Virus record (IMG/VR): IMGVR_UViG_3300032335_000589
Location: 1 to 49,087 of that record
Reading direction: 5' to 3' (one strand)
From: a virus
Taxonomy: Duplodnaviria > Caudoviricetes
DNA length: 49,087 bases
Below the pieces are notes generated by a model that worked only from the letters and a program-made list of their open reading frames with translations, made no database searches and was not told the DNA's origin. Below, in pieces: positions 2,329 to 49,087 of the stretch; within the stretch, counting starts at the first letter, position 1; each line of letters opens with the position of its first letter. The position numbers and the translations under genes were made by a program.

Positions 2329-4128
2329 ATGGAAAATAATAATCAAAATCTGACGGTTTGGCAAAGGTTATCCAAGACATTTGGACCCGATTCAACATTA
2401 GGTCAAGGACAACCAGATTACAAGTTAGACAAAAAAGAACTTTTAAAAACTCAAGACAAGGCCGAATACGAAAGGGCCAAGTTACAAAATCAACAATCGT
2501 TATATCTTAGCACCAATTGGGCTAAAGTTGAGAATAATCTATATACACAAGCGGTTTATTATGAACCAACAAGATTAGCCGCGTTTTATGATTATGAATC
2601 TATGGAATATACTCCTGAGATCTCAACGGCTTTGGACATCTACGCTGAGGAATCAACAACTCCTGATGCCAATGGTTATATATTACAAGTTTATTCAGAG
2701 TCAAAAAGAATCAAAAGTATTTTAGTTGATTTATTTGTTAATGTATTAGATATTAACACCAACTTACCAATGTGGATTAGAAACATGTGTAAGTATGGTG
2801 ATAATTTTGTTTATTTAAAATTAGACCACGAAAAAGGAGTTACTGGTTGTTTACAACTACCAAATATTGAAATCGAAAGACTTGAAAGGGGTGTTGACTC
2901 TCGAACTTATAGTGCGACTATCAACATCAATAGAAAGGCTTTAAAGTTTGCATGGAAAGCAAGAGATGCTGAATTCAACACTTGGGAGGTTGCGCACTTT
3001 AGATTATTAGGTGACGATAGAAAACTTCCTTATGGAACATCAATGTTAGAAAAAGCTCGTCGTATTTGGAAACAATTAGTATTGGCAGAAGATGCGATGT
3101 TAATTTATAGAACATCAAGAGCTCCTGAAAGAAGGGTATTTAAAGTATTTGTTGGGAACATGGACGATAAAGATGTTGAAGCTTACGTTCAAAGAGTTGC
3201 CAACAAATTCAAAAGAGATCAAGTTGTTGATAGAAAAACAGGGAATGTTGATTTAAGATTTAATCAAATGGCCGTGGATCAAGATTACTTTATTCCTGTT
3301 CGTGATGCAACACAGGGGAGTCCTATTGATACTTTACCTGGTGGAACAAATTTATCTGAAATTGCAGACATTGAATATATTCAAAAGAAACTTGTTACAG
3401 CACTTCGTATTCCTAAAGCATATTTAGGATTTGAAGAACCTGTTGGTGATGGTAAAAACTTATCATTATTGGATATTCGTTTTGCAAGAACAATTAATAG
3501 AATTCAAAAATCAGCATTGGCTGAGTTAAATAAAATTGCAATTATTCACTTATTTTTAATGGGGTTTGAAGACGAGTTATCAAACTTTACTTTACAACTT
3601 ACAAATCCTTCTAAACAAGCAGATCTTTTAATGATTGATGTTTGGAAAGAAAAAGTGACTCTGTATAAAGATATGGTCGGTGAAATTGCCAAATCAATTC
3701 AACCAACGTCTGCGACATGGGCCAAAAAACATATCTTTGGTTTCTCAGATGATGAGATTAAACTAGAACTTCAACAAATCAGAATGGAAAGAGCAGTTTC
3801 TGCTGAGTTAGATAATACCGCAACAATTATTACAAGCACAGGAATATTTAACACCGTAGATAAGTTATATAAACCGGTATCAGGATCTACCGCAGGGGCA
3901 CCGGCAGAAGGAGGAGCACCGGCAGAAGGAGGAGCACCGCCACCTCCAGGACCTGAAGCGGGTGGAGCGCCACCAATTCCTGAATCTTCAGATAGAAAAG
4001 AAAAAAATAAATTAATATTAGAATCATTAAATGATGATTTTGACGAAGATGAATTTTTGGACTTTCAAAAAGTTAATGGATCTTTAGGGTTAATGGAAGA
4101 TGAGTTAAATAAACTTCTTGGTGACTAA
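2329..4128 (+). CDS. Portal protein (T4 gp20-like)
   Basis: PEISTALDIYAEE, PYGTSMLEKARRIWKQL, EDAMLIYRTSRAPERRVFKVFVGN, DYFIPVR, IDTLPGG and DIEYIQKKL are hallmark gp20 motifs. Confidence 0.96.
   Translation: MENNNQNLTVWQRLSKTFGPDSTLGQGQPDYKLDKKELLKTQDKAEYERAKLQNQQSLYLSTNWAKVENNLYTQAVYYEPTRLAAFYDYESMEYTPEISTALDIYAEESTTPDANGYILQVYSESKRIKSILVDLFVNVLDINTNLPMWIRNMCKYGDNFVYLKLDHEKGVTGCLQLPNIEIERLERGVDSRTYSATININRKALKFAWKARDAEFNTWEVAHFRLLGDDRKLPYGTSMLEKARRIWKQLVLAEDAMLIYRTSRAPERRVFKVFVGNMDDKDVEAYVQRVANKFKRDQVVDRKTGNVDLRFNQMAVDQDYFIPVRDATQGSPIDTLPGGTNLSEIADIEYIQKKLVTALRIPKAYLGFEEPVGDGKNLSLLDIRFARTINRIQKSALAELNKIAIIHLFLMGFEDELSNFTLQLTNPSKQADLLMIDVWKEKVTLYKDMVGEIAKSIQPTSATWAKKHIFGFSDDEIKLELQQIRMERAVSAELDNTATIITSTGIFNTVDKLYKPVSGSTAGAPAEGGAPAEGGAPPPPGPEAGGAPPIPESSDRKEKNKLILESLNDDFDEDEFLDFQKVNGSLGLMEDELNKLLGD
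3898..3939 (+). repeat. 18-nt tandem repeat (gcaccggcagaaggagga, about 2.3 copies) in the portal C-terminal tail
   Basis: Encodes APAEGG APAEGG AP. Confidence 0.8.
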
Positions 4129-4139
4129 TATTTATTAAC

Positions 4140-4586: not shown

Positions 4587-4608
4587 TATTTATTATAAAA
4601 CAAAAAAA

Positions 4609-8761: not shown

Positions 8762-10648
8762 ATGGGAGCATTATTAGAATCAGGTCTTGTTGGTAACATC
8801 GGTTTGAAACACCTTAAAGTTATCAAAGAAGACACAATTAACAAATGGGACAAATTAGGCTTTTTGGATGGTCTAAGAGGTCACTTAAAAGAAAACGTAG
8901 CACAGTTATATGAAAACCAAGCTTCTTTCTTGATCAACGAAGCAACTGCTGATGGAACTTCTAACGGAGCATTCGAAACAGTTGTTTTCCCAATCGTAAG
9001 AAGAGTTTTCTCTAAATTGTTGGCTAACGACATCGTATCAGTACAAGCTATGAACTTACCAATCGGTAAATTGTTCTACTTCGTGCCAAGAATCCAAGGT
9101 TATTCAAACTCAGGATCAGTTGCTAACTTCCCTAACAACCCAACAGGTGGTGATCATTACGCACCTATCGGTTCTCCTGAAGCTGTTAATTCAGGAAATG
9201 ATAATCCTAACCAAGGTTATCCAGGTGGACCAGGTTATCCTTATAGAAAAGATCTTTACGATTTATTCTATGAAGGAAATGAAGCAAGTTTAGATCCTCC
9301 AGGATTATTTGACTACTCTAAAGGTAGATGGACTGCTGTTACTGCAACTACAACAACACAAGTATGGTCCGCAGGAACTTTAGTTGATGCTAATGTTCCA
9401 GCAGGTAACACAAGAAAAGTTATTATCAAACTTTGTGGTTTTGCTAACGCAGGTGCTGGTAAACTTATCGGTCCTGATGGTAATGAAATGGATACTGAAT
9501 CATTCCTTTCAGATCTTAAAATCTACGGTGGTGCTGGTTTATCGGCATCTACTACACCATGTGATGTAATTCAAAATGCATCAGGTCAATACTTACCATT
9601 GTTATTTAGAGTTGTAACTCAAATATATGGTAAAGGTATCGTTCAATACGGTTCAAACGCTTCAACTACTTTCGGTAGCACATTCCCAGCAAATGGAACA
9701 AACACTGGTAACGGTGGTAACTACAATGACATTTGTGATGAGAATGGATGTATCTACTTAGAGGTTGATTTATCTTGTCCTGTATGTGCTGACTGTAACT
9801 CAACATCTTTAGATGGTTACACAGGAACAACTGTTTTCACAGGAATTTCTACAACTTCATTCACCGCATGGTATAGAAGATATGCTAACCTTGAGTTTGA
9901 AGATCAAATTGGTGAGGTTTCTTTCGATTTAGAATCTGTAACAGTTTCTGTAACTGAAAGAAAACTAAGAGCACAATGGTCTCCTGAATTAGCTCAAGAC
10001 GTTGCTGCATTCCACAACATCGATGCTGAAGCTGAATTGACAGCATTATTGTCAGAGCAAGTTGCAGCTGAGATCGACCGTGAAATTTTACGTGACTTAC
10101 GTAAAGGTGCAGCTTGGAACTTACGTTGGGACTACAACGGATGGAGAAGAATTAACGCTACTACATCTTACACTCAAAAAGACTGGAACCAAACTTTGAT
10201 TACAGCAATCAACCAATTGTCGGCACAAATCCACAAATCTACTTTGAGAGGTGGTGCTAACTGGATCGTTGTATCTTCTGAGGTTTCTGCAATCTTTGAT
10301 GACTTAGAATACTTCCACGTATCTAACGCAGCTCCAGATCAAGATCAATACAACATGGGTATTGAAAGAGTTGGAACATTATCAGGTCGTTACCAAGTTT
10401 ATCGTGATCCTTACTTCCCACCAAACCAAGTTTTGATTGGACACAAAGGAACTTCATTGTTAGACACAGGTTACATTTACGCACCGTATGTTCCTCTACA
10501 ATTAACACCTACAATGTATAACCCATTCAACTTTACGCCAATCAAAGGTATTATGACCAGATACGCGAAGAAGATGGTGAATAACAGATTTTACGGAAGA
10601 ATTACCGTAGATGGTGTTAGAACATTCGACTTAAGAGAATTGAGATAA
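8762..10648 (+). CDS. Major capsid protein (T4 gp23-like)
   Basis: PIVRRVF, IVSVQAMNLPIGKLFY, RKLRAQWSPELAQDVAAFHNIDAEAELTALLSEQVAAEIDREI, YAPYVPL, FTPIKGIMTRYA. Strongly biased codon usage. Confidence 0.97.
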   Translation: MGALLESGLVGNIGLKHLKVIKEDTINKWDKLGFLDGLRGHLKENVAQLYENQASFLINEATADGTSNGAFETVVFPIVRRVFSKLLANDIVSVQAMNLPIGKLFYFVPRIQGYSNSGSVANFPNNPTGGDHYAPIGSPEAVNSGNDNPNQGYPGGPGYPYRKDLYDLFYEGNEASLDPPGLFDYSKGRWTAVTATTTTQVWSAGTLVDANVPAGNTRKVIIKLCGFANAGAGKLIGPDGNEMDTESFLSDLKIYGGAGLSASTTPCDVIQNASGQYLPLLFRVVTQIYGKGIVQYGSNASTTFGSTFPANGTNTGNGGNYNDICDENGCIYLEVDLSCPVCADCNSTSLDGYTGTTVFTGISTTSFTAWYRRYANLEFEDQIGEVSFDLESVTVSVTERKLRAQWSPELAQDVAAFHNIDAEAELTALLSEQVAAEIDREILRDLRKGAAWNLRWDYNGWRRINATTSYTQKDWNQTLITAINQLSAQIHKSTLRGGANWIVVSSEVSAIFDDLEYFHVSNAAPDQDQYNMGIERVGTLSGRYQVYRDPYFPPNQVLIGHKGTSLLDTGYIYAPYVPLQLTPTMYNPFNFTPIKGIMTRYAKKMVNNRFYGRITVDGVRTFDLRELR

Positions 10649-12824: not shown

Positions 12825-13202
12825 TTAATTGTTTAAACCATTTGGTCCTCCTAATTGAACCGCATTTAATTGTGTCACAGCATTTCCATTATTGTTTGTC
12901 CAAACAGGGTGTGGGAATTGTAATTCAATAGGGTCTCCGTCACAATTTCTTGTGCAAAGAGTATATGCAGTATTTGCAGATAAAGGAATAAACTCATTAC
13001 AGTCATAACAAGAATCAAATAAAGTTCCTATATTATATACTGGTCCAGGAAGTAATGGGGATCCACCAACGAATGTTGCACAATATGTAGTTCCTGTTAA
13101 ACTTACAGAATAAGTTTCACCTGTTGTTGGTGTTAATGCTCCGGTATCTACTTTAATGTAAACCCCAGACTGAAAACACAATTCAAATTTTTCTAGTGCC
13201 AT
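12825..13202 (-). CDS. Small Cys-containing putative virion protein
   Basis: 125 aa with TGET, TGTT and SANT motifs. TATTTAT on its strand at 13216-13222. Confidence 0.7.
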   Translation of the reverse strand: MALEKFELCFQSGVYIKVDTGALTPTTGETYSVSLTGTTYCATFVGGSPLLPGPVYNIGTLFDSCYDCNEFIPLSANTAYTLCTRNCDGDPIELQFPHPVWTNNNGNAVTQLNAVQLGGPNGLNN

Positions 13203-13227: not shown

Positions 13228-14697
13228 TTATTCTGATTTAACATTTACAATAAAGAAATTAATTTGTTGTTTATAAACATTTATTTGACCTGATGTTGTT
13301 ACTTTAATATCCACAAAGTATTCATTTGGTATTTTATCTCTTGTATCAAACATGAAATAATATTCATTTGGAGTTCTATTCAAAGTAGTCCAATCTTGAA
13401 CAACAACCTCAGTTGTCCCCTCTTTAACATACACTCTATACTGACCATCCACATTCGGAAGTTGTTTATTAGTAGTATATGCTTGTTTAATAATAACCCC
13501 AACTTTTCTAATATCTGTATTTAATATTCTTTCATTTTGTTTTAACCCATAGTAAGAAAACCCGTATTGTGATGGATCGTTTGTGTTTGTTCCAATTTGA
13601 ATTGATTTTTTAAATGGATATAATACAAATTCATTAACTTGATTTGGTAAATTAAATCCATTTAATTCAATATTGGACCAAGTATCTGTAAATGTGCAAG
13701 GTGTTTGATAACCGATTAATGGGGGTAATGTAACCTCATAAACTCCTCTTGTTCTTAAACATGTTGTAAGATTTTGAAGTCCTTGAATTGGATTTCCTTG
13801 TGAGTCAGAAATTGAAACTAAAGGATTTTGATCTAAATTAATAAAATCACCATCTTCATAAACATATAGATATAGTTTATTTGATCTCCCCATCGAAAAA
13901 TTATTTCTATCATCTTCGATTAAATCATTGTATGTTGTTAGAAGATATGGTTCATAGAATGTTTGAGTATGTCTAGTGAAAAACCCAACCGAATATGTTC
14001 CTGTTGTTCCTGATAAATTTTCAACTTGAGGTAAATAAGCGATTCCCCATCCTCTTGGGTTTTGAATAGCACCACTTAAAACATCGTTAATTTCTGAAGT
14101 CATATCAAACTCAATATCTTCATTACCAAATTCAAAGTGTTGTATATCAACAATTGTGATAGATGAAAATGGAACTAATCCACCATTTGTATTATCATAT
14201 ATTCCGGCTTGTTGCCAATCATTAATGGTTGTTCTTTCAAACCAATTTGATGGTCTATCAGAATATGCCCTGTTCGGACCTAATGTTTCAGGTATATCAT
14301 AAAAATCATACCCAACTCCTTCGTCCCAAGTTTGAGGAAGTGCCGGATCAAAATTAACAGGAGGTATTCTAAAAAGTATTAAATCAAATGAAGTTGCTCT
14401 CATACTACCGTCAGGCATTGAGGTATTTAATAGTTCATTATTAAATGATGAGGTATTTGTCATCTTTAATGTATGAGTCATTTCACTATTTAAACAATTT
14501 GTGGAAATTATACCTTGAGCAATTTTTTCTCTTAATGAAGTTAAATCTAAATCAAAGATAAAACGTGAATAACCAACAGGGTTTACTAAACCACCGTCGC
14601 CATAGTAAAGTTGCATAACAGGATTTCTTCCTGTGTTAACATAACTATTATATACTATCGTGTTGTTTCTACTAAAGTAGGAGTTATGAATTGACAT
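13228..14697 (-). CDS. Putative structural (baseplate/tail) protein
   Basis: 489 aa, beta-rich, next to the spike gene. TATTTAT at 14711-14717. Confidence 0.65.
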   Translation of the reverse strand: MSIHNSYFSRNNTIVYNSYVNTGRNPVMQLYYGDGGLVNPVGYSRFIFDLDLTSLREKIAQGIISTNCLNSEMTHTLKMTNTSSFNNELLNTSMPDGSMRATSFDLILFRIPPVNFDPALPQTWDEGVGYDFYDIPETLGPNRAYSDRPSNWFERTTINDWQQAGIYDNTNGGLVPFSSITIVDIQHFEFGNEDIEFDMTSEINDVLSGAIQNPRGWGIAYLPQVENLSGTTGTYSVGFFTRHTQTFYEPYLLTTYNDLIEDDRNNFSMGRSNKLYLYVYEDGDFINLDQNPLVSISDSQGNPIQGLQNLTTCLRTRGVYEVTLPPLIGYQTPCTFTDTWSNIELNGFNLPNQVNEFVLYPFKKSIQIGTNTNDPSQYGFSYYGLKQNERILNTDIRKVGVIIKQAYTTNKQLPNVDGQYRVYVKEGTTEVVVQDWTTLNRTPNEYYFMFDTRDKIPNEYFVDIKVTTSGQINVYKQQINFFIVNVKSE

Positions 14698-14717: not shown

Positions 14718-16271
14718 TCAATTAATTCGAATATTTTGATTTAATATTGAATTATCTGCGTCTTGTAGAATTTTGTTAATTTCATCTAACTTGGTTCCGT
14801 CAGTTCCTATTGGAATTGGGGCTTCGTTTATATTGTGAACATGTGATCCTAAAAATTTAACAATTAACGTAAGAAGTTTCATAAGTTCGTCACCTCTAAC
14901 CATAGGATCTGTATTGGGTAATATCTGATCCGTAAAATATGGTTGGTCAATTCCGTATAAAGTTTCTTTAGGTTGAAGATTGATTTTGTTTCTTGCTGGA
15001 ATATCGGTTTTGTGTGATAATAAATAAACAAAATCTCCACCCAAAGTCCCATAAGAAACAGGATCTGGAGTATAAGATGATTGACGTAAAGTTTCGTTTT
15101 GTAATGTTAATTGTTGACCAACAACGTTTTTTGCCCAAACTAATACACTACCAAATTGTTTATCTGATGGTAATAATTTAATTTTGGTGAAGAAACTATT
15201 AACCATATTATATGCGGAATTAGAACTTGATGCGTGTTTGTCAATATTATCTTTTGTGGGTCTGAAATAAAAAGGAAATTGTTTTTCTAATCTTTGGTCA
15301 TTAGCTTCGGGAAATTGTGGATATCCATCGACATTAATTTTACCTTGATTAACCCCATTGATAAATTGGTTAACAATTTTGATACCTTGATCTAAAGTTT
15401 TACCTGTAAAATCTAAAACATATTCAGGACCACTTTTAAATGATTCTAAAGGTGTGGTCATATCGATTTCGGTAGTTTTAGTTTCATCTTTAGGTAATAG
15501 TGAATACAATTTAATACTACCATTATATACTGTGGTTGCGGTAACACCTCCTCCACTTGTAAAACCAGTTAAATTAAATTCATCAGTAACTTCCCACTCA
15601 ACCAATTTTTTAACTAATTGAGGTAAATTAGAGAAAAATCTTCTTTTAATTGGGTCTAATTCTTTTTTCTGTAAGTCAAATAATGAAACTTGTAAAAATC
15701 CTCTGTTTTGTCTTGGTGTTGGTAAATTAAAACCTGAAGTTTGTGGTTGAATGTTTTTACCTGATCTAACCAATACAGTATCTCTTTTAACCACAACATC
15801 TGATGTACCTCTACCAATTAAAGCGTTATCACCTGGTTGAGGGTATATCCCATATGTTTCGGCTTTATTTTCGAACGGAAATAGAGGGTCTTTTATATTG
15901 TTGGCTTCTTTTAAAAAAGTCCCACTTGCCAACATTGACTCTGAATTTCTCCAATATTCAAAACTATTATTTTGTGGTCTTGTAATTGGTCCTTGAATAT
16001 AAAATTTTGAATTATCAATTACTTGAGAACTGTTATAATAAAAAATGTGAATATATTCATCAACTTTTGGAACTTGACTTATATAGTAAGGTAAAAGAGG
16101 TAGATAAATTAAAGGGTCTCTTTCTGTCCATATATCCTTTTCTTCGTTCCAATCAATAGGTAATAAAGCAGATTCCAATTCCTCAATTGGAATTGCACGA
16201 ATTCTCCCTAACATCAGTGGATCTTGATTGTTTATAACATACCCTTGTTGTATTAATCTTTCGTCATTCAT
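14718..16271 (-). CDS. Baseplate hub / central spike protein (gp5/gpV-like)
   Basis: The N-terminal GYVINNQDPLMLGRIRA...LPLLP...VPKVDEYIHIF matches the gp5/VgrG OB-fold signature. C-terminal SHVH (HxH) spike-tip motif. Confidence 0.75.
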   Translation of the reverse strand: MNDERLIQQGYVINNQDPLMLGRIRAIPIEELESALLPIDWNEEKDIWTERDPLIYLPLLPYYISQVPKVDEYIHIFYYNSSQVIDNSKFYIQGPITRPQNNSFEYWRNSESMLASGTFLKEANNIKDPLFPFENKAETYGIYPQPGDNALIGRGTSDVVVKRDTVLVRSGKNIQPQTSGFNLPTPRQNRGFLQVSLFDLQKKELDPIKRRFFSNLPQLVKKLVEWEVTDEFNLTGFTSGGGVTATTVYNGSIKLYSLLPKDETKTTEIDMTTPLESFKSGPEYVLDFTGKTLDQGIKIVNQFINGVNQGKINVDGYPQFPEANDQRLEKQFPFYFRPTKDNIDKHASSSNSAYNMVNSFFTKIKLLPSDKQFGSVLVWAKNVVGQQLTLQNETLRQSSYTPDPVSYGTLGGDFVYLLSHKTDIPARNKINLQPKETLYGIDQPYFTDQILPNTDPMVRGDELMKLLTLIVKFLGSHVHNINEAPIPIGTDGTKLDEINKILQDADNSILNQNIRIN

Positions 16272-16510
16272 CTTGTTTGAGTTCTTTCAGAATATTCTTT
16301 GTATAATAAATTATAAGTGTTTTCTAATTTATCTAAATGATGTGTTAATTTTAATATAGAGTCTTTTGTTATTTTAAAATCTTCTTGAATAAAGTCCATT
16401 GCCAATTGTAGATCTTTATTTGAACTATCCTTGTGATTTTTAATAATCTCAAGAATTTCTTGAGATTTAATTTTCTTATCGGTTATGTTAAATGAATTTT
16501 CCATATGCAT
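16268..16510 (-). CDS. Hypothetical coiled-coil protein
   Basis: 80-aa ORF overlapping both neighbours. Confidence 0.65.
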   Translation of the reverse strand: MHMENSFNITDKKIKSQEILEIIKNHKDSSNKDLQLAMDFIQEDFKITKDSILKLTHHLDKLENTYNLLYKEYSERTQTR

Positions 16511-18413
16511 CTGTTGGTATTGTTATTCCTGCTGGAGTTATGGTTATTGGCCCAATCCCAATTGCGACTTTTCCATTTTCGTCCATTTCTTGTGCATTAC
16601 CATCAATCATTGCTTTTATTGATGCCAAAAATTTATTTGGGCTACCATCCGGCATAGGTCCCGTTGGGACTCCAATCTCTTCTAAATTTTCAATTGTATT
16701 TAAAAAAGACCTTGTTGGTGAATATCCGTCTAATAATTTGGCGGATAATAAAAGTGGAAGTGGTAACTCCCCACCACTTTCTGCCAATTTATCTAATCTT
16801 TTTTTAACGCCAATATTCAATAATTGTAGTAGTTCATCTAAAACGCTTTTACACTCTCTAAAATCTTTTACAATTTGTGTTAAGACAGGAATTATGGCAA
16901 CTATTGATAAGATCATTCTGTATTTCTTTTTTGTTTTTTCATCCGCAATATCCTTTAAAAGTAATGCAACTAAAATTTTAATTTCCTTTTTTAACTCTTC
17001 AAACACCGCTTTGGTAAAGATTGCAGCAACTTTAGTTAAAAGTTCGTTGAAAAAGTTTTTAAATCTTTTTAAAAAATCTTCTAAATTAGATATTTGATCA
17101 AATATTGGTTGATTTACCATACCGGCAACTACCATTATGGGTAACACAGTTTTAGGTGACAATACAGTATTTACAATTGCTTTAATAAATTGTTGAAAAA
17201 ACCCTGAATCTAAAGATAGTTTGAAGGCCGGATCTTCATCAATGACAGGATATATAATACCTAAAGCGTCATTTATTTCATTAACATCAGAAGTATCTTC
17301 ATTAAATTGTAAATTGTCTAAAGCGGTTAAAACGGCATCTAAATTCATTTGGATTTTTACATTATCACATTCCTCAAATTCAATTACACCTAATTTAATG
17401 TCTGAAGTAATTTGATCAATTATTCTTAAATCAACATCGTTAAATTCATAAAACGATTCATCAACATTATCAACTTCAGAAACTTTTGATGTCCCTCCGA
17501 CATTTATTTCTTTATTAGAATCCGAACATAGACCTAATATTCTTTGCATTATTATTAAAGATTTTTGAATTGATGAAAGTTTTAATTTACCATCACCTCT
17601 ACCGAAAGAAATTGCTCCTGTAACAAAATTAACTAAATTGGTAAAAAATGTTTTATAATCTAATATGTCAATAGTGCTATAATAGTCGTTCAAAAACTCA
17701 TCTACCAATGGAATATTTTGTCTAGGTTTCAAGTCTATTTTAAAGAAATTACCTTGAATTGTTTGGTTATTTATATCAACATAACTCTCAACATAAGATA
17801 TATCAAATAAATTTTGTGACGATGTGCCTAAGTAATCGTTTCCCGCAATAGAGGAGTAAGTTTGATTCAAATTTTGAGTTCGGTCATAAAGCTCCCTATT
17901 CATCGAATAGGGAAATTGGTTAAAAGTGGTTGCGCTAACTTCATAATAAAGTTTACCAATTCTATCTATAGGTGACGATTCAAAAATTCCAAAAAGATCC
18001 ACAGATTTTACAGGTATATAATAAGTTGTGTTAAATTGATATCCTTGTAAATTACTACATGCAAGAGATTTTTGAACCTCTTCTATTATAAGATTTTTTA
18101 TTTCAGGTTTTGATTTTTTTAAAGAATTTACAAAAATTCTTTTTATTACGGTGTCAGTTTCTAAACCTGACCCCTTTAGCTCTTTAAGTTGTTTAATTAA
18201 CTCATCTAAAAAAGTTTTGGCAACAACCGTATGTTTTTTTCTAAATTTAACAAAATCATCAAGTTGATTTGATAAAAATTTGTTTGAGGTTTCTTGTGAA
18301 TTTCCAGCCTTTTTCTTAAGATTTTCATAATCTTTTTTATATTCTTTATATTTTTTATAAACTTTGGTTTTATTTGCCGCCTTTTTTAAATCTTCATTGA
18401 TATCAACTGCCAT
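16488..18413 (-). CDS. Hypothetical large helical protein (putative virion)
   Basis: 641-aa ORF in the same operon as the spike gene. Confidence 0.75.
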   Translation of the reverse strand: MAVDINEDLKKAANKTKVYKKYKEYKKDYENLKKKAGNSQETSNKFLSNQLDDFVKFRKKHTVVAKTFLDELIKQLKELKGSGLETDTVIKRIFVNSLKKSKPEIKNLIIEEVQKSLACSNLQGYQFNTTYYIPVKSVDLFGIFESSPIDRIGKLYYEVSATTFNQFPYSMNRELYDRTQNLNQTYSSIAGNDYLGTSSQNLFDISYVESYVDINNQTIQGNFFKIDLKPRQNIPLVDEFLNDYYSTIDILDYKTFFTNLVNFVTGAISFGRGDGKLKLSSIQKSLIIMQRILGLCSDSNKEINVGGTSKVSEVDNVDESFYEFNDVDLRIIDQITSDIKLGVIEFEECDNVKIQMNLDAVLTALDNLQFNEDTSDVNEINDALGIIYPVIDEDPAFKLSLDSGFFQQFIKAIVNTVLSPKTVLPIMVVAGMVNQPIFDQISNLEDFLKRFKNFFNELLTKVAAIFTKAVFEELKKEIKILVALLLKDIADEKTKKKYRMILSIVAIIPVLTQIVKDFRECKSVLDELLQLLNIGVKKRLDKLAESGGELPLPLLLSAKLLDGYSPTRSFLNTIENLEEIGVPTGPMPDGSPNKFLASIKAMIDGNAQEMDENGKVAIGIGPITITPAGITIPTDAYGKFI

Positions 18414-21420: not shown

Positions 21421-21678
21421 TTATATTTTGTTTATTATGTTTTTTACTCTTAAACTATTAAAAGAAATTTTAAATGGTATTGTTAGTTCACTATTATTAG
21501 GTCCTAACTTTTCATCAACGGGTTCAATTTCAGTTAAGATGGTATCAACCATCATTTTAACCATTTCATACTTAACTAAATGGATTTGAGATTCTCCTGA
21601 AGAACTTGTCATTTCCACTTCTTTTTCAACTTTATCCAAATCGATGTAGTAATTTTCACCAAAAAGACTAAACAGCAT
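21421..21678 (-). CDS. Hypothetical protein
   Basis: 85-aa ORF within the operon. Confidence 0.7.
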   Translation of the reverse strand: MLFSLFGENYYIDLDKVEKEVEMTSSSGESQIHLVKYEMVKMMVDTILTEIEPVDEKLGPNNSELTIPFKISFNSLRVKNIINKI

Positions 21679-36272: not shown

Positions 36273-38642
36273 ATGGCTTACCAAAATATAAATCAATATA
36301 ATTATCAAAAGTTAAAAATGCAAGTCATTTATGACGGGCAAGATATGTCATTGGCTTCTGATGAGGTTGATTTTAACCAAGAAGTTGTGTTCTCACCCTT
36401 TTTAATCGCAATTGATAATGGAAAAAAACTTCCAATTTCGTTGAATCTTAATAGTCCATTAACGACACAAAACTTGAATTTAACGTATGGGATTTATAAT
36501 CCAAACAACGTTATTGTTTCTGAAAACTTTTATCAACCCGATGATTTAAACTTAAATTGTTTTAGTGCAAATTCAACATGTGATATTGGATTGACAGGTA
36601 TTGATAATGGATTGGTCACAAAAATAAAGGGTGATGATTTATATTATACCAATGGTTTATTTAACGACGCAGAAAAATTTGATAGATTATATTATGACAG
36701 ACGAATGAAGTTTATTCAAACAACGACAAACGTTCCTAATAATAATAAATTCTCTGGTATAACTGATTACACATATTATCAAATGGTTTCAAAGGTAAGT
36801 CCCATATTTGGTAGATACGTTGAGTTATATGGTGGATTTTATCAAGGGTTTTATAAGTTGTTTGGTTATGACTATGACATATTACCTGAAAGAATGAATA
36901 AAGGTTGGTCGGTTGAAATGTTATTAAAACCAAGATTTTCGAATGAATACGCTCCACCACCAGGTTATACAACTTTGAATCAAATTTATCCCAACAATAA
37001 AAATACATTTTTTTATATGGGGGCAAGAGCCGAAAACAAATTTTATCATTATGCTGATGGTTCCCCAAAATGTGATCCTGAATATGTTAGAATTACATCA
37101 GGTTTAACAAAAGAAGAAACTTGTGCTTGTTGTAATTACGAAATTAAAAATAGTAGATGTATATACGTTTATCCACCAAGACCAAAAGGTGGTGTGTATG
37201 ATCCACACGTAAATTATGGTTGTAATTTATGTAAAGGTGATGATAATCAAAAAATTACTTGCGGATGTAAATGTTATGAATCTCCTTGTGAGACTTGTGG
37301 TTGGATGTGTTTTGATCATAAGTGTGGGTCTATAATTGTCCCAACACCAACACCCACACCAACTCCGTCACCAACGGTTCCTTGTGATACTTATCCTCAA
37401 ATAATTCAATGCACCGTAACTCCTTCATGTTGCACATCTTGTCAATCTTGTGGTTGTGATGTGTGTGGATGTCCTCCGAAATCGGCGTCAACAACTTTTT
37501 CATCTGTGGAAGATACTTGTGAAAAAGATCCCAAGTTTGATGCGTTGTCTAATAACATATCTTTTAGATTGTGTGGTGATCCACAAAATCCTGGTATTGG
37601 TGTTCGAGCGATTAAAATCACGGGTGATTGTATTACAACAGGAGAATGTATTACAGGTCAAACTTATGTGACTGGTTATACAATAGTTGATATTTGCACT
37701 CCACCGATATACCCTTATTGTTTAGAGGTTAATCCAGATTGGTTAGACGTAGAACATTGGTTTTTATTAAATGCGGTTTGGGAAAGATATACTTATTGGG
37801 ATTATTGTGATTTAAGATGGTTCGGAGGTTTAGATGATATAACAAGAGTCGAATACCTTCAAAGTTTAGCAAACAATGCCGTGTCTTTAATTGGTCCACC
37901 ATATACTAATGGTTATGAAGTTCCAGGTCAAATAGAAATTGTCCAATTAAATCAAATATGGTTAGATGATACCAAGTTTAGAATGGGTCGATTAAAAATT
38001 TATATAAATGGTCGAATATTTTATACAATAGAAGATTTTGAAGAAGTAATACCTCGAGCGTTAGACACCGACAAAGAAAAACAAGTTGCAGTTCCTTTTA
38101 ACATGTCATGGGGAGGTGGAACTCAAGGTCTTCATGAAAATCTAACACTAAACTTTTGTAATATATGGAACTACTCGGCAGGTAGTGTGACCACTGATAT
38201 ATTATATGTTGATTGTAATGGAGATCCTGCATCACTTACAGGTCTTACAAATGTTAATGGAAGTATAATTGTTGATAAAAACAACACACCAACAATAACA
38301 GTTCCTGATACTAATAACTCAGTTAGTTTTAGTGGTAATTACCATTTAAAGAGTGATGACTATAATCAAGATCCTGAATGTTTCCCTGAAAATATTTTAA
38401 GTGCGACAACATTAAATAAATTAAAGACACACATACTATTAGAACAAAACTTTGCAGGAACATTTGATGGTGCGATTTCACAATTTAGATTTTATACCGA
38501 ACCATTATCAGCACCTGAAGTGAAACATAATTTTAAATTATTAAGAAACACATTTTACATGTTTGATCCCGATTGTCCGAATTGTGATTTGGCGTCATGT
38601 CTTCCAAATGATTTTACATACAACATAATAAATAACGAATAG
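36273..38642 (+). CDS. Cys-rich virion protein with a split LamG/ConA-like domain
   Basis: GWSVEMLLKP, LKIYING and FDGAISQFRFYTEPLSAPEVKHNF suggest LamG. Cys-rich and PT-repeat insert. Confidence 0.65.
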   Translation: MAYQNINQYNYQKLKMQVIYDGQDMSLASDEVDFNQEVVFSPFLIAIDNGKKLPISLNLNSPLTTQNLNLTYGIYNPNNVIVSENFYQPDDLNLNCFSANSTCDIGLTGIDNGLVTKIKGDDLYYTNGLFNDAEKFDRLYYDRRMKFIQTTTNVPNNNKFSGITDYTYYQMVSKVSPIFGRYVELYGGFYQGFYKLFGYDYDILPERMNKGWSVEMLLKPRFSNEYAPPPGYTTLNQIYPNNKNTFFYMGARAENKFYHYADGSPKCDPEYVRITSGLTKEETCACCNYEIKNSRCIYVYPPRPKGGVYDPHVNYGCNLCKGDDNQKITCGCKCYESPCETCGWMCFDHKCGSIIVPTPTPTPTPSPTVPCDTYPQIIQCTVTPSCCTSCQSCGCDVCGCPPKSASTTFSSVEDTCEKDPKFDALSNNISFRLCGDPQNPGIGVRAIKITGDCITTGECITGQTYVTGYTIVDICTPPIYPYCLEVNPDWLDVEHWFLLNAVWERYTYWDYCDLRWFGGLDDITRVEYLQSLANNAVSLIGPPYTNGYEVPGQIEIVQLNQIWLDDTKFRMGRLKIYINGRIFYTIEDFEEVIPRALDTDKEKQVAVPFNMSWGGGTQGLHENLTLNFCNIWNYSAGSVTTDILYVDCNGDPASLTGLTNVNGSIIVDKNNTPTITVPDTNNSVSFSGNYHLKSDDYNQDPECFPENILSATTLNKLKTHILLEQNFAGTFDGAISQFRFYTEPLSAPEVKHNFKLLRNTFYMFDPDCPNCDLASCLPNDFTYNIINNE

Positions 38643-40266: not shown

Positions 40267-41052
40267 ATGACCGATTTTAGTAAAGTTGGTGGAGTGGGAA
40301 TTATGGGTTTCATTTCACCAATGGACACCCTTGATACCTATGCAGTAATTGATCCCTTATATGGTATTGATGGACTACGTAATGTAGATAATGAAGACGA
40401 TTTAAATTCAATACCTTACGATCGAAGACGACCTGGTATGATCGTAGGAATCGAAGGTGGTCAACGATTTTTTAAACTTAAAAACGATTTTTGGTCTTTT
40501 AGCCCTCTAGATTGGGACGAAATATTTTTTTTAACGTCTCCACAATTAGAAGTATTAAATAATTTACCAAATAAATTAGTAGTCCCTGGCGTTAACTCAT
40601 CAACATTTATTGATCGTGAATTAATTTCGGGATCTATCGATAGTCTAAATAGAGAATTCCAACTTCGTTTTACGCCAGAATTAAATTCAGAACACATTTA
40701 TTATAACGGACTCTTACAAGATAAAGGAAACGACAAAGATTATATTATTAGTGGAAAAACGATAGTATTTAATAATCCACCAAAAATTAACAGCAAACTT
40801 CTTTGTTCCTATAGAACTTATAGTGAAATTAATTTCATCGATCATGAATATCCTGTTGGTGAAATTAATGGGATAAATAAATCATTCGAGTTGTCAATTT
40901 TTCCTAAAACAGGAAGTGAACACATTTATTTGAATGGTTTATTACAAGATTTTGGAAATGATAATGACTATACGATTTCAGGTAAAACTATAACTTTCAA
41001 AATCGCACCTCCTAGTTGGAGTAAAATAACTTGTTCTTATCGCTATAATTAA
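40267..41052 (+). CDS. Virion protein with two copies of a YxNGLLQ...DY.ISG.TI.F beta domain
   Basis: Internal duplication: SEHIYYNGLLQDKGNDKDYIISGKTIVF versus SEHIYLNGLLQDFGNDNDYTISGKTITF. Confidence 0.75.
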   Translation: MTDFSKVGGVGIMGFISPMDTLDTYAVIDPLYGIDGLRNVDNEDDLNSIPYDRRRPGMIVGIEGGQRFFKLKNDFWSFSPLDWDEIFFLTSPQLEVLNNLPNKLVVPGVNSSTFIDRELISGSIDSLNREFQLRFTPELNSEHIYYNGLLQDKGNDKDYIISGKTIVFNNPPKINSKLLCSYRTYSEINFIDHEYPVGEINGINKSFELSIFPKTGSEHIYLNGLLQDFGNDNDYTISGKTITFKIAPPSWSKITCSYRYN

Positions 41053-41584: not shown

Positions 41585-44002
41585 ATGGCTACTACTAAAA
41601 TAGTTTTAGACTTACAATCGGACTTGGTATTAACTAGTCCTCAAATTACCAGCCCAACTGGTCTTGTTAAAGCTGACATCTCTGGCTTAGTTACTGATTT
41701 AGCATCGATTAACACTGCCGCATCTGTAGAAGAGTCTGCTCGTATTGCAGGTGACAATTCTGTTGCATCTAACTTGTCAAGCGAAGTTGTTAACCGCACT
41801 GCTGCCGTTTCTACTGAAGTAGCCGCTCGTATCGCTGGTGACAACTCTGTTGCATCTAACTTAGCTCAAGAAGTTCTTGACAGAATAGCTGATGTAGACG
41901 CCGAGGAAACTCGTGCTGAAGCGGCTGAATTGTCTTTAACTAACTCAGTTACTGCTGAAGCATCTCGTGCACTTGCCGCTGAAACTTCTGTTGCTAATGA
42001 CTTAGCTGCTGAAATCACTGCTCGTATCGCTGATGTTAACGCTGAAGAATCTCGTGCTACTGCCGCTGAAGGTTTATTGGCTGCTAACTTGACTGCTGAA
42101 GCTTCAACTCGTCTTGCTGCTGATACATCTTTGAACACAAAGATTGATTATGTGATTTCTAACACGGACGCAGCTGCTCTTGATTCATTAACTGAAATCG
42201 TTTCTGCTTTCCAATCTGCTGATGGTAACATCAACAACACTATCACAACTTTAGCAACTAACGCTTCTATCGCAACATCTACTGAAGTATCTCGTGCTAC
42301 TTCTGTTGAAGCAACTATCGCAGCTAACCTTTCTTCTGAAATCGTTAACCGCGGTCTTGATGTAGACGCTGAAGAGGCAAGAGCAGAATCTGTTGAGGCT
42401 GAATTGTCTGAAGAGATTTCTACTGAGGTAGTTAACCGTTTAGCTGCGGTATCTACTGAAAAAGTTGCTCGTGAGGCTGCTGACACTTCTTTGTCATCTC
42501 GTGTGAATACTGAAGAGAATGCTCGTGCTGCTGCTGACGCTTCATTGGCTACTTTAATCTCTACTGAGATTTCTACGGAGCACGCTCACCATGTATCTGC
42601 TGAAGGTTCAATCAACACTCGTTTGACTGCCGAAGAATCTGCAAGACTTGCTGGTGACAACTCTTTGGAGTCTTATGTTAATGCTGAAATCATTGCCGCT
42701 AACGCTTCTATCGATACTCGTGTATCTAACGAAGAGGTTACTCGTGCAAATGCTGACAGCTCTTTAGCAACCGCTCTTTCTAACGAAGCGACAACTCGTG
42801 GTAATGCTGACAATTCAATCGCTCTTAACCTATCATCTGAAATCTCTAACCGAGTTGCTGATGTTAACGCTGAAGAATCTCGTGCTACTGCAGCTGAAGG
42901 TTCATTGGCTACTGCGTTGAGCTCTACTGCATTAAACTTAACTAATTTAATTAGCTCTGAGGAAGTTGCTAGAGAAAATGCTGATGAGTCTTTAGATGCT
43001 AAATTGTCTACTGCAATTTCTACAGAGCATGAACACCATGTATCTGCTGAAGCTTCTTTAGATTCTAAAATTAATGAGGCTAAGACTTCAATCAACTCTA
43101 GAGTATCTTCTGAAGAAAGCAACCGTCTTGCCGCTGACACATCTTTAGCTAATGCTATCGAAGACGAAAAAGACCGTATCGATGCAATCCTTGATGGTTC
43201 TACAGTTAATTTAGACCAATTTGCTGAAATCGTTTCTTTTGTTAACGGAATTGACCTTGAGAATGATAACGCATTGTTATCAGCTGTAACTTCTATCGGT
43301 GGTCGTATCGATGACGAAGAAGAAGCTCGTGAATCTGCAGATTCATCATTGGCATCTGTAATTGCAACAAACAGAACTGACGCTAACACAGCAATGTCTA
43401 CTGAAATTTCTAACAGACAATCTGCTGATACTTCATTGGCTACTGCTCTTGGGTCTACTGAGTTGTTCCTTAACGGTAAAATCAACACTGAGACCTCTAA
43501 CAGAGTAGCTGCTGATGGTTCATTAGAAACTGCTCTTGCAACTGCTAAGACTAGCATCAACTCTGCAATCTCTCAAGAAGTTTCTGACCGTGAGCAAGCT
43601 ATCGATGCTTTAATCTTAGACTTAAACTCTGAGATTTCTAGAGCTGAGGCTGCTGAAGATTCATTAGAGGCTGCTTTATCCGCTGAGGTTGCTAACTTGT
43701 TAGCTAACACTGACCTTACTGCAATCGACTCTTTCCAAGAAGTAGTAAACGAACTTGAGGACATTACAAATGATTTTGAGAACACTTACTTCAAGAAGGT
43801 TGTAGTATCTGGTTTAGTTAACGGTACTAACAAAGACTTCACCCTTGCTGCCGCAGTACGTACTAACTCTGAAGCAATCTACTATAACGGTCTTCTTCAA
43901 GAAGCTGGTGTAGATTACAACATGAGCGGTACAACTGTATCTTTCACTTACACTCCTAAAATGGGTGGAAAGATTACCGCTTACGGTGTTTACAACGCAT
44001 AA
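41585..44002 (+). CDS. Long coiled-coil fibre protein
   Basis: Repeats E-x-x-R-x-A-A/G-D-x-S-L, three LDSLTEI-type motifs (LDSLTEIV, LDQFAEIV, IDSFQEVV), and a C-terminal YYNGLLQ domain. High-expression codon usage. Confidence 0.82.
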   Translation: MATTKIVLDLQSDLVLTSPQITSPTGLVKADISGLVTDLASINTAASVEESARIAGDNSVASNLSSEVVNRTAAVSTEVAARIAGDNSVASNLAQEVLDRIADVDAEETRAEAAELSLTNSVTAEASRALAAETSVANDLAAEITARIADVNAEESRATAAEGLLAANLTAEASTRLAADTSLNTKIDYVISNTDAAALDSLTEIVSAFQSADGNINNTITTLATNASIATSTEVSRATSVEATIAANLSSEIVNRGLDVDAEEARAESVEAELSEEISTEVVNRLAAVSTEKVAREAADTSLSSRVNTEENARAAADASLATLISTEISTEHAHHVSAEGSINTRLTAEESARLAGDNSLESYVNAEIIAANASIDTRVSNEEVTRANADSSLATALSNEATTRGNADNSIALNLSSEISNRVADVNAEESRATAAEGSLATALSSTALNLTNLISSEEVARENADESLDAKLSTAISTEHEHHVSAEASLDSKINEAKTSINSRVSSEESNRLAADTSLANAIEDEKDRIDAILDGSTVNLDQFAEIVSFVNGIDLENDNALLSAVTSIGGRIDDEEEARESADSSLASVIATNRTDANTAMSTEISNRQSADTSLATALGSTELFLNGKINTETSNRVAADGSLETALATAKTSINSAISQEVSDREQAIDALILDLNSEISRAEAAEDSLEAALSAEVANLLANTDLTAIDSFQEVVNELEDITNDFENTYFKKVVVSGLVNGTNKDFTLAAAVRTNSEAIYYNGLLQEAGVDYNMSGTTVSFTYTPKMGGKITAYGVYNA

Positions 44003-45829: not shown

Positions 45830-45917
45830 ATATTATAAATAGATTGAAATCTCTTTGAGTTTATATTTATAGATGTTATTGATCATTATTTCATATAACA
45901 GAAATATTTAAAATAAG

Positions 45918-48900
45918 ATGCCAGTATATAATAGATTAACAGACCGTCAAAAAGTTTCAGCCGTAACTTTAAACGATATATTTCACGTAGTAGTTACGGG
46001 AGACACAACACAGAGCCCTCAAGGATCATCTTATTATGCACCTTTGAGTGACCTACAAGCACTTTTAAGTGGTTCTACAGGTCCTGCGGGAACTTCAGGG
46101 ACTAGTGGAACTAATGGTTCAAGCGGAACAAGAGGGACAAGCGGAACCAATGGAACATCAGGAACAAATGGAAGTTCGGGAACAAACGGTTCAAGCGGAA
46201 CCAATGGAACATCAGGGACTGGAGGTTCTTCAGGAACTGGAGGTTCTTCAGGAACTTCAGGCTCGAGTGGAACTTCAGGTTCAAGCGGAAGTTCGGGAAC
46301 TAATGGGACAAGTGGAACTAATGGTAGTTCAGGAACAAATGGATCTTCAGGGACTAATGGAACATCAGGGGTTAATGGAACTAGCGGAACAAACGGGACT
46401 AATGGAACTAGCGGATCTTCAGGAACATCAGGAACTAACGGTAGTTCAGGAACATCAGGAACTAACGGAACTAGCGGTAGTTCAGGAACAAATGGTTCTA
46501 GCGGTAGTTCAGGAACAAATGGTTCTAGCGGTAGTTCAGGAACAAATGGAACAAATGGTTCTAGCGGAACTTCAGGGACTAATGGGACTAATGGAACAAG
46601 TGGCACAAATGGAAGTAGTGGAACATCAGGAACTAATGGCACATCAGGCACAAATGGAACCAATGGCACATCAGGCACAAATGGAACTTCAGGAACTAAC
46701 GGAACTAACGGAACAAGTGGAACTAACGGAACATCAGGGACTGATGGTTCAAGTGGCACAAACGGAACATCCGGATCTAGTGGCACAAACGGAACATCCG
46801 GCACAAATGGGACAAGTGGTTCTTCAGGCACAAATGGGACTAATGGGACGAGCGGAACTAATGGAACTTCAGGAACTGATGGTTCAAGCGGCACGAATGG
46901 GACTTCAGGCACGAATGGGACTTCAGGGACTAACGGATCTAGTGGTTCTTCAGGAACTAACGGAACAGACGGCTCAAGTGGGACTAATGGAACTTCAGGG
47001 ACAAATGGCACATCCGGCACGAATGGAACATCAGGCACAAATGGTTCTTCGGGAACAAATGGGACTTCAGGCACTAACGGATCTAGTGGTTCTTCAGGAA
47101 CTAACGGAACTTCCGGCACTAATGGCACAAGTGGAACTAATGGCACCGATGGTTCAAGTGGGACTAACGGAACTAATGGAACTAGTGGTTCTTCAGGAAC
47201 AAATGGAACTAGTGGTTCTTCAGGAACAAATGGGACAAGTGGAACTAATGGAACATCTGGCACAAATGGAACTAGTGGTTCTTCAGGAACAAATGGGACA
47301 TCAGGATCTAGCGGAACAAGTGGTTCTTCAGGAACTGACGGAACAAGTGGAACTGGGTTTTCTGCGGTAACAAATCCTGCCCTTACAAGAATATTAACTT
47401 CTGACAGCACTCCAAATGGAGCAATTGCCCAATCAGGTTTAACGTTTAGTTCAAATACTTTATCATTAAACATTGGAAATATTTCGGGAGTAACCCTAAT
47501 TGATTTTTATACAGGGTCAACAAATCCATCTTCGGTTGGTGGAAGACTTTTCTTTGATAACTCAACAAATGCTTTATCTTATTATGATGTTTTAGGAAGT
47601 AATGTTCCAATTGCTATGGGACAACAATTATACACAAGAGTTTATAACAATACTGGAGTTCAAATCGACAAAGGTAAACTTGTGATGATTACAGGAACAA
47701 CTAATGGTTTGCCAAGTATTGCATTAGCGACTAATAACGATATTATTGGTTCTCCAAGACCAGTTGGTTTGGCAGCAGAAAACATTTTAAATAATGGTCA
47801 AGGATTAGTGTTAAACAACGGTATATTAAGTGGATTAACAATAAACACTTTTAATAATGGTGATACCTTATATCAATCACCAACATCACCAGGTGATTAT
47901 ACAAACTCAACCGCATCATTTCCATTTTCAGCGAGAACAAATGAAATTGGTTATGTTCTTGAAACAGGAACAACATCCGGTAAAATATACGTTAATATAA
48001 ATAATGAAGATACAAATCTTTCATTAACAGACATTGAAAGAAATATTTTAGAGGGAAATGTTATTTCGACAGGTGTATATGAATTTACAGGTATCACGGT
48101 AGCATCACCAACAACAATTAATATTGCCCAAGCAAAAGGATGGATAGTTAAAAACACATACTCATTTGCAACACTACCTGATGTAATTAATATATTTTAT
48201 ACGGGACAAACAGGTGTTACCGTGACAAATATTTCAGGTTATGATGCGACATATATTTTATTAAACAGCGGTGGAACAATAGACCAACAAGGAACTTTCC
48301 CAACACCTCAAGAAAGAAGAGAAAAAATATTTTTGGGTAAAGTCGTCCACCCAAATAGGACATCAATTTTAAATGTAAACAATACAGTAGACTATGATGT
48401 ATCACCTATATCGTCTCTTCGCGATTTGTGGACACCGATAAGATTAATTAATCAGGGTATTACACCATCCCCAAATGGTAGTAATCTATCATTTAACACA
48501 AGTGCTGGATTTTTATGGGGTAATGGTATTAATTGGGCGTCTAACCAATTAGACCCAAATCAAGTATCAATATCGGCAAAAACCCCGGCATCTTTCTTTT
48601 ATAGAACCCAAACAGGTGGAACAAGTGGGTCTGTTACGGTTATTGACCCAACCAAATATGATAATGGTGGGGTAATAACTTCTGTGGGCACTGCAGGTAG
48701 TAATGATGCAACTAATCAAAGAATATTTTTATACCCTACAGGTGTTTTAAATGTGTTATATGGGCAAACGGTTTATGCGACATTAGCTGAGGCCATTTCA
48801 AACATAAACTCAGAAACTTTTGTAACATACCCTAATGCCGCAACCACAGGAATATTAATTGGGATTTTGTCGGTAAGAAATGATATTGTGGCTGATGGAC

Positions 48901-49087
48901 AATACTTAACAAATCCAAGTTATGCTAAATTCACTGCAGTATCAAAATTTGGTGAAAGTTTTGGCGAAACAGGAGGGATTTCAACAACAACTTTACAACA
49001 AGCTTACGACAATTCGACAAACCCTGAAATATTAACCAACTCTACTTTAGGTGCGGTTTCATTTAAACAAGGTAGTGGTTCTAATGC
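45918..49087 (+). CDS. Collagen-like (Gly-Thr/Ser) fibre protein, 3'-truncated by the window; not in the supplied ORF track
   Basis: ATG at 45918 (MPVYNRLTDRQKVSAVTLND...). The frame stays open to the window end. G-X-Y repeat followed by beta-rich domains (YTRVYNNTGVQIDKGKLVMITG, PVGLAAENI). Confidence 0.9.
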   Translation, partial: MPVYNRLTDRQKVSAVTLNDIFHVVVTGDTTQSPQGSSYYAPLSDLQALLSGSTGPAGTSGTSGTNGSSGTRGTSGTNGTSGTNGSSGTNGSSGTNGTSGTGGSSGTGGSSGTSGSSGTSGSSGSSGTNGTSGTNGSSGTNGSSGTNGTSGVNGTSGTNGTNGTSGSSGTSGTNGSSGTSGTNGTSGSSGTNGSSGSSGTNGSSGSSGTNGTNGSSGTSGTNGTNGTSGTNGSSGTSGTNGTSGTNGTNGTSGTNGTSGTNGTNGTSGTNGTSGTDGSSGTNGTSGSSGTNGTSGTNGTSGSSGTNGTNGTSGTNGTSGTDGSSGTNGTSGTNGTSGTNGSSGSSGTNGTDGSSGTNGTSGTNGTSGTNGTSGTNGSSGTNGTSGTNGSSGSSGTNGTSGTNGTSGTNGTDGSSGTNGTNGTSGSSGTNGTSGSSGTNGTSGTNGTSGTNGTSGSSGTNGTSGSSGTSGSSGTDGTSGTGFSAVTNPALTRILTSDSTPNGAIAQSGLTFSSNTLSLNIGNISGVTLIDFYTGSTNPSSVGGRLFFDNSTNALSYYDVLGSNVPIAMGQQLYTRVYNNTGVQIDKGKLVMITGTTNGLPSIALATNNDIIGSPRPVGLAAENILNNGQGLVLNNGILSGLTINTFNNGDTLYQSPTSPGDYTNSTASFPFSARTNEIGYVLETGTTSGKIYVNINNEDTNLSLTDIERNILEGNVISTGVYEFTGITVASPTTINIAQAKGWIVKNTYSFATLPDVINIFYTGQTGVTVTNISGYDATYILLNSGGTIDQQGTFPTPQERREKIFLGKVVHPNRTSILNVNNTVDYDVSPISSLRDLWTPIRLINQGITPSPNGSNLSFNTSAGFLWGNGINWASNQLDPNQVSISAKTPASFFYRTQTGGTSGSVTVIDPTKYDNGGVITSVGTAGSNDATNQRIFLYPTGVLNVLYGQTVYATLAEAISNINSETFVTYPNAATTGILIGILSVRNDIVADGQYLTNPSYAKFTAVSKFGESFGETGGISTTTLQQAYDNSTNPEILTNSTLGAVSFKQGSGSN
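46071..47357 (+). repeat. About 143 consecutive G-X-Y triplets (mostly GTS/GTN/GSS)
   Basis: A ggN codon every 9 nt. The antisense ORF shows Pro every third residue throughout. Confidence 0.92.

Follow-up and report, generated by a model that had tools for sequence, protein, structure and literature searches.

Why should mutually unrelated proteins of one phage share the same short peptide pattern? This question is raised by the window analysed here, the whole 49,087-nucleotide stretch of IMG/VR virus record IMGVR_UViG_3300032335_000589, an AT-rich 49-kb virus record whose head genes (terminase, portal, protease and Gp23) form a T4-like module. A preliminary description had noticed a recurrent [ST]-[GA]-x-T motif in its structural proteins, usually preceded by a hydrophobic residue and rare in the metabolic enzymes, and had proposed that it is the recognition site of a phage O-glycosyltransferase; all the peptides it quoted are present in the genes it named. 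Here, we report that the pattern is a short linear motif found throughout the lineage, mainly where capsid, spike, sheath and fibre-like proteins carry insertions. In the predicted outer proteins of this uncultured jumbo phage and its relatives, which are unrelated to each other, it occurs at about seven times chance, mostly in inserted loops.

We call strict the form in which V, I, L, F, Y, W or M precedes [ST][GA]xT and bare the form [ST][GA]xT alone, and give counts as observed versus expected (a vs b, or a/b). Across the 51 proteins of the window, the strict form occurs 38 times vs 7.3 expected from 1,000 per-protein shuffles, none of which reached that number, while the bare form reaches only 51 vs 29.0, bearing out both the enrichment across non-homologous proteins and the preference for a preceding hydrophobic residue. 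Because the pattern had been chosen by eye, we ranked it against 16,384 four-position patterns in low-complexity-masked proteins, where the strict form came first (36 vs 4.8, log10 p -19.2, 13 proteins); the bare form was likewise first of 6,000 three-position patterns, and without masking the ranking is dominated by Thr-Pro repeats. Shuffling inside blocks of 20-50 residues gave means of 4.9-5.6 strict sites, with a maximum of 16 in 500 shuffles. Thus, the ranking, the block shuffles and the out-of-sample relatives described below rule out chance or post-hoc pattern choice, and masking with block shuffles rules out a composition or low-complexity artefact, except for the bare motif in the collagen-like fibre protein, which composition explains. 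Since that protein is at chance without the hydrophobic residue (17 vs 14.6), this residue must be part of the signal. Moreover, the codons at the sites are mixed, with both TCN and AGY in use, and the motif is therefore not a DNA repeat. The rarity in enzymes also held, with 2 vs 0.8 strict sites in the 18 enzyme and regulator genes of the window.

The genes that carry the motif, or had been said to carry it, are the following:

8762..10648, plus strand: T4-like major capsid protein (Gp23, PF07068; matches to T4 gp23)
12825..13202, minus strand: small Cys-rich protein of no known family, with LTGTT and LSANT (2 vs 0.15)
13228..14697, minus strand: conserved 489-residue protein of no known family, with LSGTT
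14718..16271, minus strand: putative gp5-like spike, with three sites at residues 234, 243 and 288
36273..38642, plus strand: Cys-rich 789-residue protein with five strict sites (5 vs 0.28) and a Thr-Pro tract
40267..41052, plus strand: small module-repeat virion protein (PHROG virion and tail-fibre matches) with two ISGKT sites (2 vs 0.06)
45918..49087, plus strand: collagen-like fibre protein (PF01391, tail-fibre PHROGs), cut by the end of the window
18804..19547, minus strand: sigma-like protein, a non-virion carrier, with LTAET (Sigma70_r2 at E 6e-4 in the G031 homologue)
21668..22384, minus strand: NT5C-like protein, a non-virion carrier (Atlas neighbour clusters with PF06941)
2329..4128, plus strand: portal (PF07230), with a lone VSGST in the C-terminal tail, not significant alone
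16488..18413, minus strand: 641-residue protein with VSATT at chance level (homologues 7 vs 8.8)
41585..44002, plus strand: coiled-coil fibre-like protein with LSAVT and MSGTT (2 vs 0.87, not above chance)

The motif is not a peculiarity of this record. We used six large relatives, of which G001, G002, G018 and G031 are complete or near-complete, G031 and G044 are complete and G043 spans 94 kb; complete relatives have genomes of 296-363 kb. The strict motif is in excess in G002 (159/35.1), G001 (89/26.3), G018 (133/35.3), G031 (91/34.7), G044 (104/35.5) and G043 (23/10.2). Similarly, the capsid homologues of 80 capsid-centred loci contain 272 vs 27.9 sites, proteins of these loci without a homologue in the window have up to nine sites each, and copies reach 17 per protein in the relatives. 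In G002, a 145-kb stretch without morphogenesis genes, whose boundary was chosen after the counts were seen, holds 5 vs 9.3 sites and the remainder 154 vs 25.8. No excess was seen in 41-50 kb genome parts of T4 (5/7.1), the cyanophage S-SCSM1 (7/5.5), ESCO13 (9/8.4) and LR756508 (1/2.8). An apparent motif-less subclade (L329, 1/1.8; L040, 0/1.2) vanished for L329 once its 94-kb twin G043 gave 23/10.2. The 41-kb relative G027 (L437, L438, L040) has 3 vs 3.0 sites and a capsid protein without any; at this length, its glycosyltransferases would not be visible.

Where the sites sit is equally informative. The five sites of the window's capsid protein (residues 190, 193, 202, 260 and 353; DNA 9329-9832) all fall within an insert at residues 110-375, which would face outwards, as in T4, and is flanked by parts that match T4 gp23. 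In a set of 65 distinct capsid proteins, this insert holds 225 sites against 16.9 expected from local composition, and the core 4 against 7.9. The capsid sites are spread over 26 alignment columns, partly through alignment jitter, and new ones arise inside lineage-specific insertions. In the spike, the sites lie within an insertion of about 215 residues that is missing in 25 short homologues, the profile of which aligns to residues 4-196 and 412-517 only. The spike label itself is putative, with no family match, and sequence searches of the PDB with this protein, the glycosyltransferase at 32255 introduced below and the PF11397 protein of relatives returned nothing significant. In four genomes, with classes set by family labels in an assignment that was not blind, capsid, sheath and spike together have 32/5.6 sites and eight inner or assembly families 3/3.7. 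Thus, "structural proteins", the term used in the preliminary description, was too wide for the inner virion.

The single site of the 13228 protein is not significant alone; its homologues have 103 vs 11.9 sites, with a site in 50/50. The homologues of the 12825 protein, which also has a TTGET lacking the preceding hydrophobic residue, have 90 vs 7.2, with a site in 38/39. Both are presumably virion proteins. Homologues of the 36273 protein in G002, G005, G031, G043 and G044 have 3-9 sites each, and the collagen-like fibre protein has 12 strict sites (12 vs 2.8), none inside its Gly-X-Y repeat. That repeat, at residues ~55-480, is built of Gly-Thr-Asn, Gly-Thr-Ser and Gly-Ser-Ser, lacks Pro and contains dozens of N-G-[TS] triplets. 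The sites of the portal, the 16488 protein and the 41585 protein, which had been counted as part of the pattern, drop out of it, being at chance level only; portal homologues have a site in the same column in 8 of 37 distinct sequences and 12 vs 7.1 in total, no clear excess.

In another respect, "structural proteins" was too narrow, as the sigma-like and NT5C-like genes carry the motif in about half of the relatives. The sigma-like family has a site in 25/45 homologues, in many relatives within a variable N-terminal tail, and the NT5C-like family in 23/48, here as MSGNT within a clade-specific insertion of about 20 residues. Over 49 rows (loci L123-L202), 19 have the tail, 23 the insertion, none both, and 7 neither or missing data, an exclusivity that amounts to two or three independent contrasts only.

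The motif obeys a strict grammar, as judged from counts pooled from five related genomes, which are hence not independent. The first place takes Ser (244/66) or Thr (264/70), with Asp at 60/51 and Cys at 5/9.9; the second takes Gly (343/86) or Ala (165/50), with Ser at 106/101. The x position is almost free (Gly 44/6.7, Leu 41/6.6, Ala 24/3.7), and the +3 place is Thr (508/136), with Ser at 164/138 and Val at 119/106; Thr at +2 and +4 shows a smaller excess (238 and 192 vs 136). A hydrophobic residue often follows the motif, and Asp directly ahead of it is not enriched (18/23). In the window, turn-like Gly-[NSTDGK]-Thr sites are in excess (12/1.1) and non-turn subsets equally so (Ala at +1, 14/2.1; Gly with a hydrophobic x, 7/0.9), while a [DN]-G-x-T control shows no enrichment (2/2.6). 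We also considered an FN3 signature and discarded it, as just 3/41 Gly-Leu sites continue in an FN3-like manner. The demand for Thr rather than Ser at +3 is therefore easier to explain by a linear recognition signal than by a fold. The non-turn subsets, together with the tail and insertion sites of the sigma-like and NT5C-like proteins, likewise argue for a linear signal, one that extends beyond the virion.

What could read such a signal? A minus-strand block of the window carries sugar genes and at least five matches to glycosyltransferase families, and the window has fibre-like genes too. Four enzymes stand out:

19547..20353, minus strand: GT2 glycosyltransferase (PF00535), lineage core, candidate enzyme
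20356..21414, minus strand: divergent GT-B (GT4-like) glycosyltransferase (weak PF00534; Atlas neighbours with PF00534), core, candidate initiating enzyme
27857..29356, minus strand: two-domain GT2-type glycosyltransferase (PF13712 and PF00535)
32255..33466, minus strand: GT4-type glycosyltransferase (weak PF13692, phrog_7162), core, candidate enzyme

Sixty-four families are common to G031, G001, G002 and G018; four of these are glycosyltransferases, and all four are present in the window. The 19547, 20356, 27857 and 32255 families accompany the motif in 6/6 large relatives, the third partly. The first two occur in G001, G002, G018, G031, G043 and G044, and the 20356 protein, which has zero matches among 50,697 annotated phage records, is yet kept in all large relatives examined. 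For 27857, at least the first domain is core, with partial-length matches in G031 and G044 and a GT4 second domain in G031. The 32255 family is found in the six relatives, in G018 as a 122-residue piece only. By contrast with these four, the neighbouring accessory sugar genes differ from genome to genome. The sigma-like and NT5C-like genes flank the core pair at 19547 and 20356. Among 13 unannotated core proteins, Pfam revealed no other protein-modifying enzyme, 11 of the 13 having no match.

We consider it probable that the motif is an acceptor sequon for a phage glycosyltransferase that starts an O-glycan, which variable enzymes then extend. One of the four core glycosyltransferases would read the motif in the host cytoplasm, where phage capsids assemble, and attach the first sugar; the other sugar genes of that cluster, which vary, would lengthen the O-glycan into a strain-specific coat. 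Since the first place accepts Ser and Thr alike whereas the last does not, we favour the first Ser/Thr as the accepting hydroxyl and the +3 Thr as a recognition residue. Here, the carriers would face outwards, a hydroxyl would be modified, the modification would be a sugar and the enzyme would be one of the four. As to the original proposal of an O-glycosyltransferase site, the sites do behave like a recognition signal in their turnover and in their placement within insertions; the sugar and the enzyme we infer.

Several observations weigh against this interpretation. The search turned up no member of the lineage without the four enzymes, and their co-occurrence with the motif therefore reflects shared descent rather than an independent correlation. 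The 32255 family is also present in ESCO13, where the motif is at chance (9/8.4), and distant homologues exist in Phapecoctavirus, which is without the motif. The unannotated core families could include another modifying enzyme, and by profile comparison Immutovirus and the lineage share no orthologous enzyme beyond a generic GT2 match. A weak, unexplained excess appears outside the lineage in the whole genomes of XacN1 (61/43.6) and Immutovirus (44/26.2), and a mild one in 33 enzyme and regulator families of the four genomes (18/9.3). The capsid model is poor (pLDDT 53, pTM 0.34) and has two overlapping sites on a strand, and ISGKT and MSGTT resemble plain hairpins; the context of ISGKT in the 40267 protein in particular looks like an ordinary beta-hairpin. 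Finally, bacterial O-glycosylation is rarely motif-based (PMC12871550).

Two further patterns in these phages bear on the identity of the reader. Long Thr-Pro tracts are found in the window at 1489-2280, 38643-40241 and in part of 36273-38642. A PF11397 enzyme is encoded by XacN1 and by 18 of 26 near relatives, among them the relative closest to the window. We equate PF11397 with CAZy GT60. Presence of the enzyme matches presence of the tracts in 8/8 complete or near-complete genomes, representing about three independent contrasts: G001, G002, G018 and XacN1 have both, and G031, G044, Immutovirus and Mel-JY01 neither. PF11397 was not found in the complete G031 and G044, and a profile of our own for the enzyme was also negative in G043 and G044. 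As the closest relative, G005, has the enzyme, the window phage probably has one. PF11397 tracks the tracts and not the motif, so it is not the motif reader, and the lineage probably contains two acceptor systems, the motif and the Thr-Pro tracts. As a separate observation, the ORF at ~272,200 of XacN1 (AP018399.1) encodes a 2,800-residue protein with 11 strict sites (3.6 expected) and Thr-Pro tracts.

The second pattern is a sister motif, hydrophobic-[ST]-[GA]-Ser, in two cultured phages, Immutovirus (92/25.2) and Mel-JY01 (64/21.6), which also have a GT4-GT4-GT2 gene block in common. It occurs in sheath, baseplate and fibre proteins (Immutovirus MW353175.1, L081 and L082; Mel-JY01 PP395634.1, L235, L241 and L242). 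A protein common to the lineage, Immutovirus and Mel-JY01 was considered and rejected; it resembles a membrane coiled coil and also occurs in XacN1. It is tempting to speculate, in a broader picture that could go either way, that a large group of aquatic T4-like jumbo phages has its own cytoplasmic, sequon-directed code of protein O-glycosylation, by which the entire particle is coated. The sequon would be shifted between sister lineages, with +3 Thr in this one and +2 Ser in Immutovirus and Mel-JY01, and read by different enzymes, a second, mucin-type system on Thr-Pro tracts would vary independently, and the tag would reach even the sigma-like protein.

The signal could instead be read by something unrelated to sugars, namely a core protein of the phage that has no annotation. 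This could be a different modifying enzyme, or a small binding protein such as a chaperone or decoration protein to which the motif is added as a beta-strand. The statistics support a linear signal without naming its reader, Pfam has no match for several of the 64 core families, no shared glycosyltransferase connects the motif with the sister motif, and the exclusivity of the sigma-like and NT5C-like sites in the 49 rows looks as if one docking site were needed. That exclusivity, however, comes down to the few contrasts given above; two hydroxyl positions at which Val and Cys are no substitutes are what a hydroxyl-directed enzyme would need, a coat would agree with the up to 17 copies per protein, and the flavin transferase ApbE was not found in the four relatives searched, so that we regard a non-sugar reader as unlikely. 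Less likely still is a purely structural preference, a beta-hairpin or strand start favoured by the lineage in beta-rich domains and carrying no modification. The carriers are indeed beta-rich, turn-like sites are common, a hydrophobic residue often follows, and the capsid model (pLDDT 53) puts sites on a strand, a hairpin and loop-strand junctions. Yet enrichment is equally strong in the non-turn subsets and absent from the [DN]-G control, FN3-like continuations are scarce, sites also occur in a variable N-terminal tail, and the structural regions of T4, S-SCSM1 and ESCO13 show no excess. Moreover, in related phages the last hydroxyl is +2 Ser instead of +3 Thr in all proteins together, a shift that a fold would not dictate.

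It is very improbable that a host enzyme reads the motif, be it the general O-glycosylation system of Bacteroidota or ApbE. The nearest cultured capsid proteins include that of a Flavobacterium phage (41%), and the motif includes the ApbE target [ST]GA[ST] as a special case (PMC8238504); against this, Asp ahead of the Ser/Thr is not enriched and D[ST][AILMVT] stands at 32/44.4, Ala at x is no more enriched than Gly or Leu, and both host systems work outside the cytoplasm. The [ST]-G-A-[ST] target has 0 sites in the window, and the ApbE gene was found in 0/4 relatives (two at least 90% complete), a search of phage genomes only; the host may have a copy. We give hardly any credence to the PF11397 mucin-type polypeptide GlcNAc transferase of close relatives as the reader. 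It belongs to a protein O-glycosyltransferase family acting on Thr, and the polypeptide GlcNAc transferase of T. cruzi modifies Thr-rich peptides (PMC3769586); its gene lies among motif-rich genes in G002, and most near relatives have it. The complete G031 and G044 keep the motif without the enzyme, which largely refutes this candidate, XacN1 with the enzyme has only 61/43.6, and its presence matches the Thr-Pro tracts instead.

How does the proposed sequon compare with known systems? A precedent is the reported O-glycosylation of mycobacteriophage virions by glycosyltransferases that the phages themselves encode (Freeman et al. 2023, as cited by PMC12619734 and PMC10877033). In both cases a tailed phage brings glycosyltransferases of its own, and capsid proteins have Ser/Thr sites. 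There, the glycans are reported at the C-termini of capsid and tail tube, whereas the sites predicted here are internal and in many unrelated proteins: the capsid sites span 190-357 of 628 residues, and the tail tube has 0 sites in the relatives tested. Bacterial O-glycosylation generally proceeds without a sequence motif, Bacteroidota being described as the only known motif-directed case (PMC12871550). Their D-[S/T]-[A/L/V/I/M/T] is likewise a short Ser/Thr-centred motif; it differs in having Asp before the hydroxyl and in acting on non-cytoplasmic proteins, while here a hydrophobic residue comes before, the following place prefers Gly, and the motif needs a second Thr. The ApbE motif (PMC8238504) shares the Ser/Thr-Gly-x-Thr spacing, but here the third residue is free, Ala may replace Gly and the last place is Thr only. 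The TibC/AAH autotransporter heptosyltransferases (PMC4358343), compared by description, are also soluble enzymes with many sites on beta-rich surface proteins; their sites are arranged on the surface of a beta-helix and belong to a single substrate family, whereas ours are isolated and fall in unrelated folds and tails. The N-x-[S/T] sequon of the HMW1C/NGT type is not enriched in the masked window with the NGT/NGS-rich collagen-like repeat left out (136 vs 151). A literature search, with most subscription papers outside its reach, found no description of the motif, and the available text of PMC12014285 and PMC7824862 does not mention it.

If the sequon reading holds, soluble phage enzymes would provide a second example, within the bacterial world, of O-glycosylation guided by a sequon, and with it a compact tool for site-specific glyco-engineering. 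In addition, an abundant group of water phages would have glycan-covered particles, with effects on how they adsorb, how stable they are and how readily proteomics detects them. Comparing the relatives leaves four genes of the window as candidates for the enzyme, and the cultured Immutovirus, with its sister motif, makes the sequon idea directly testable.

As for the lineage, the best-matching cultured capsid proteins, 41-44% identical, are those of Flavobacterium phage immuto (41%) and Microcystis phage Mel-JY01. The moraphages (PMC12619734) are similar in being aquatic phages of 200-307 kb with T4-like head genes, PolB, ClpA, PhoH and dUTPase, and in having four core glycosyltransferase groups next to the four core enzymes here, by description only. 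About 19 of the 26 moraphage gene groups were matched in G002 and the window, by label name alone; the available text of that paper describes no sequon.

The window contains other genes of note. A DUF2827 protein (44073-45275, minus strand) lies among the fibre genes; G001 and G002 have one, and G018, G031, G043 and G044 do not. A 62-residue basic protein (5322-5510, minus strand) is S21-like, its pattern resembling, in our judgement, ribosomal protein S21; the head module of Mel-JY01 contains an annotated S21. Finally, a probable scaffold protein at 7160-8725 contains four near-identical copies of an acidic, Met-rich 11-residue unit.

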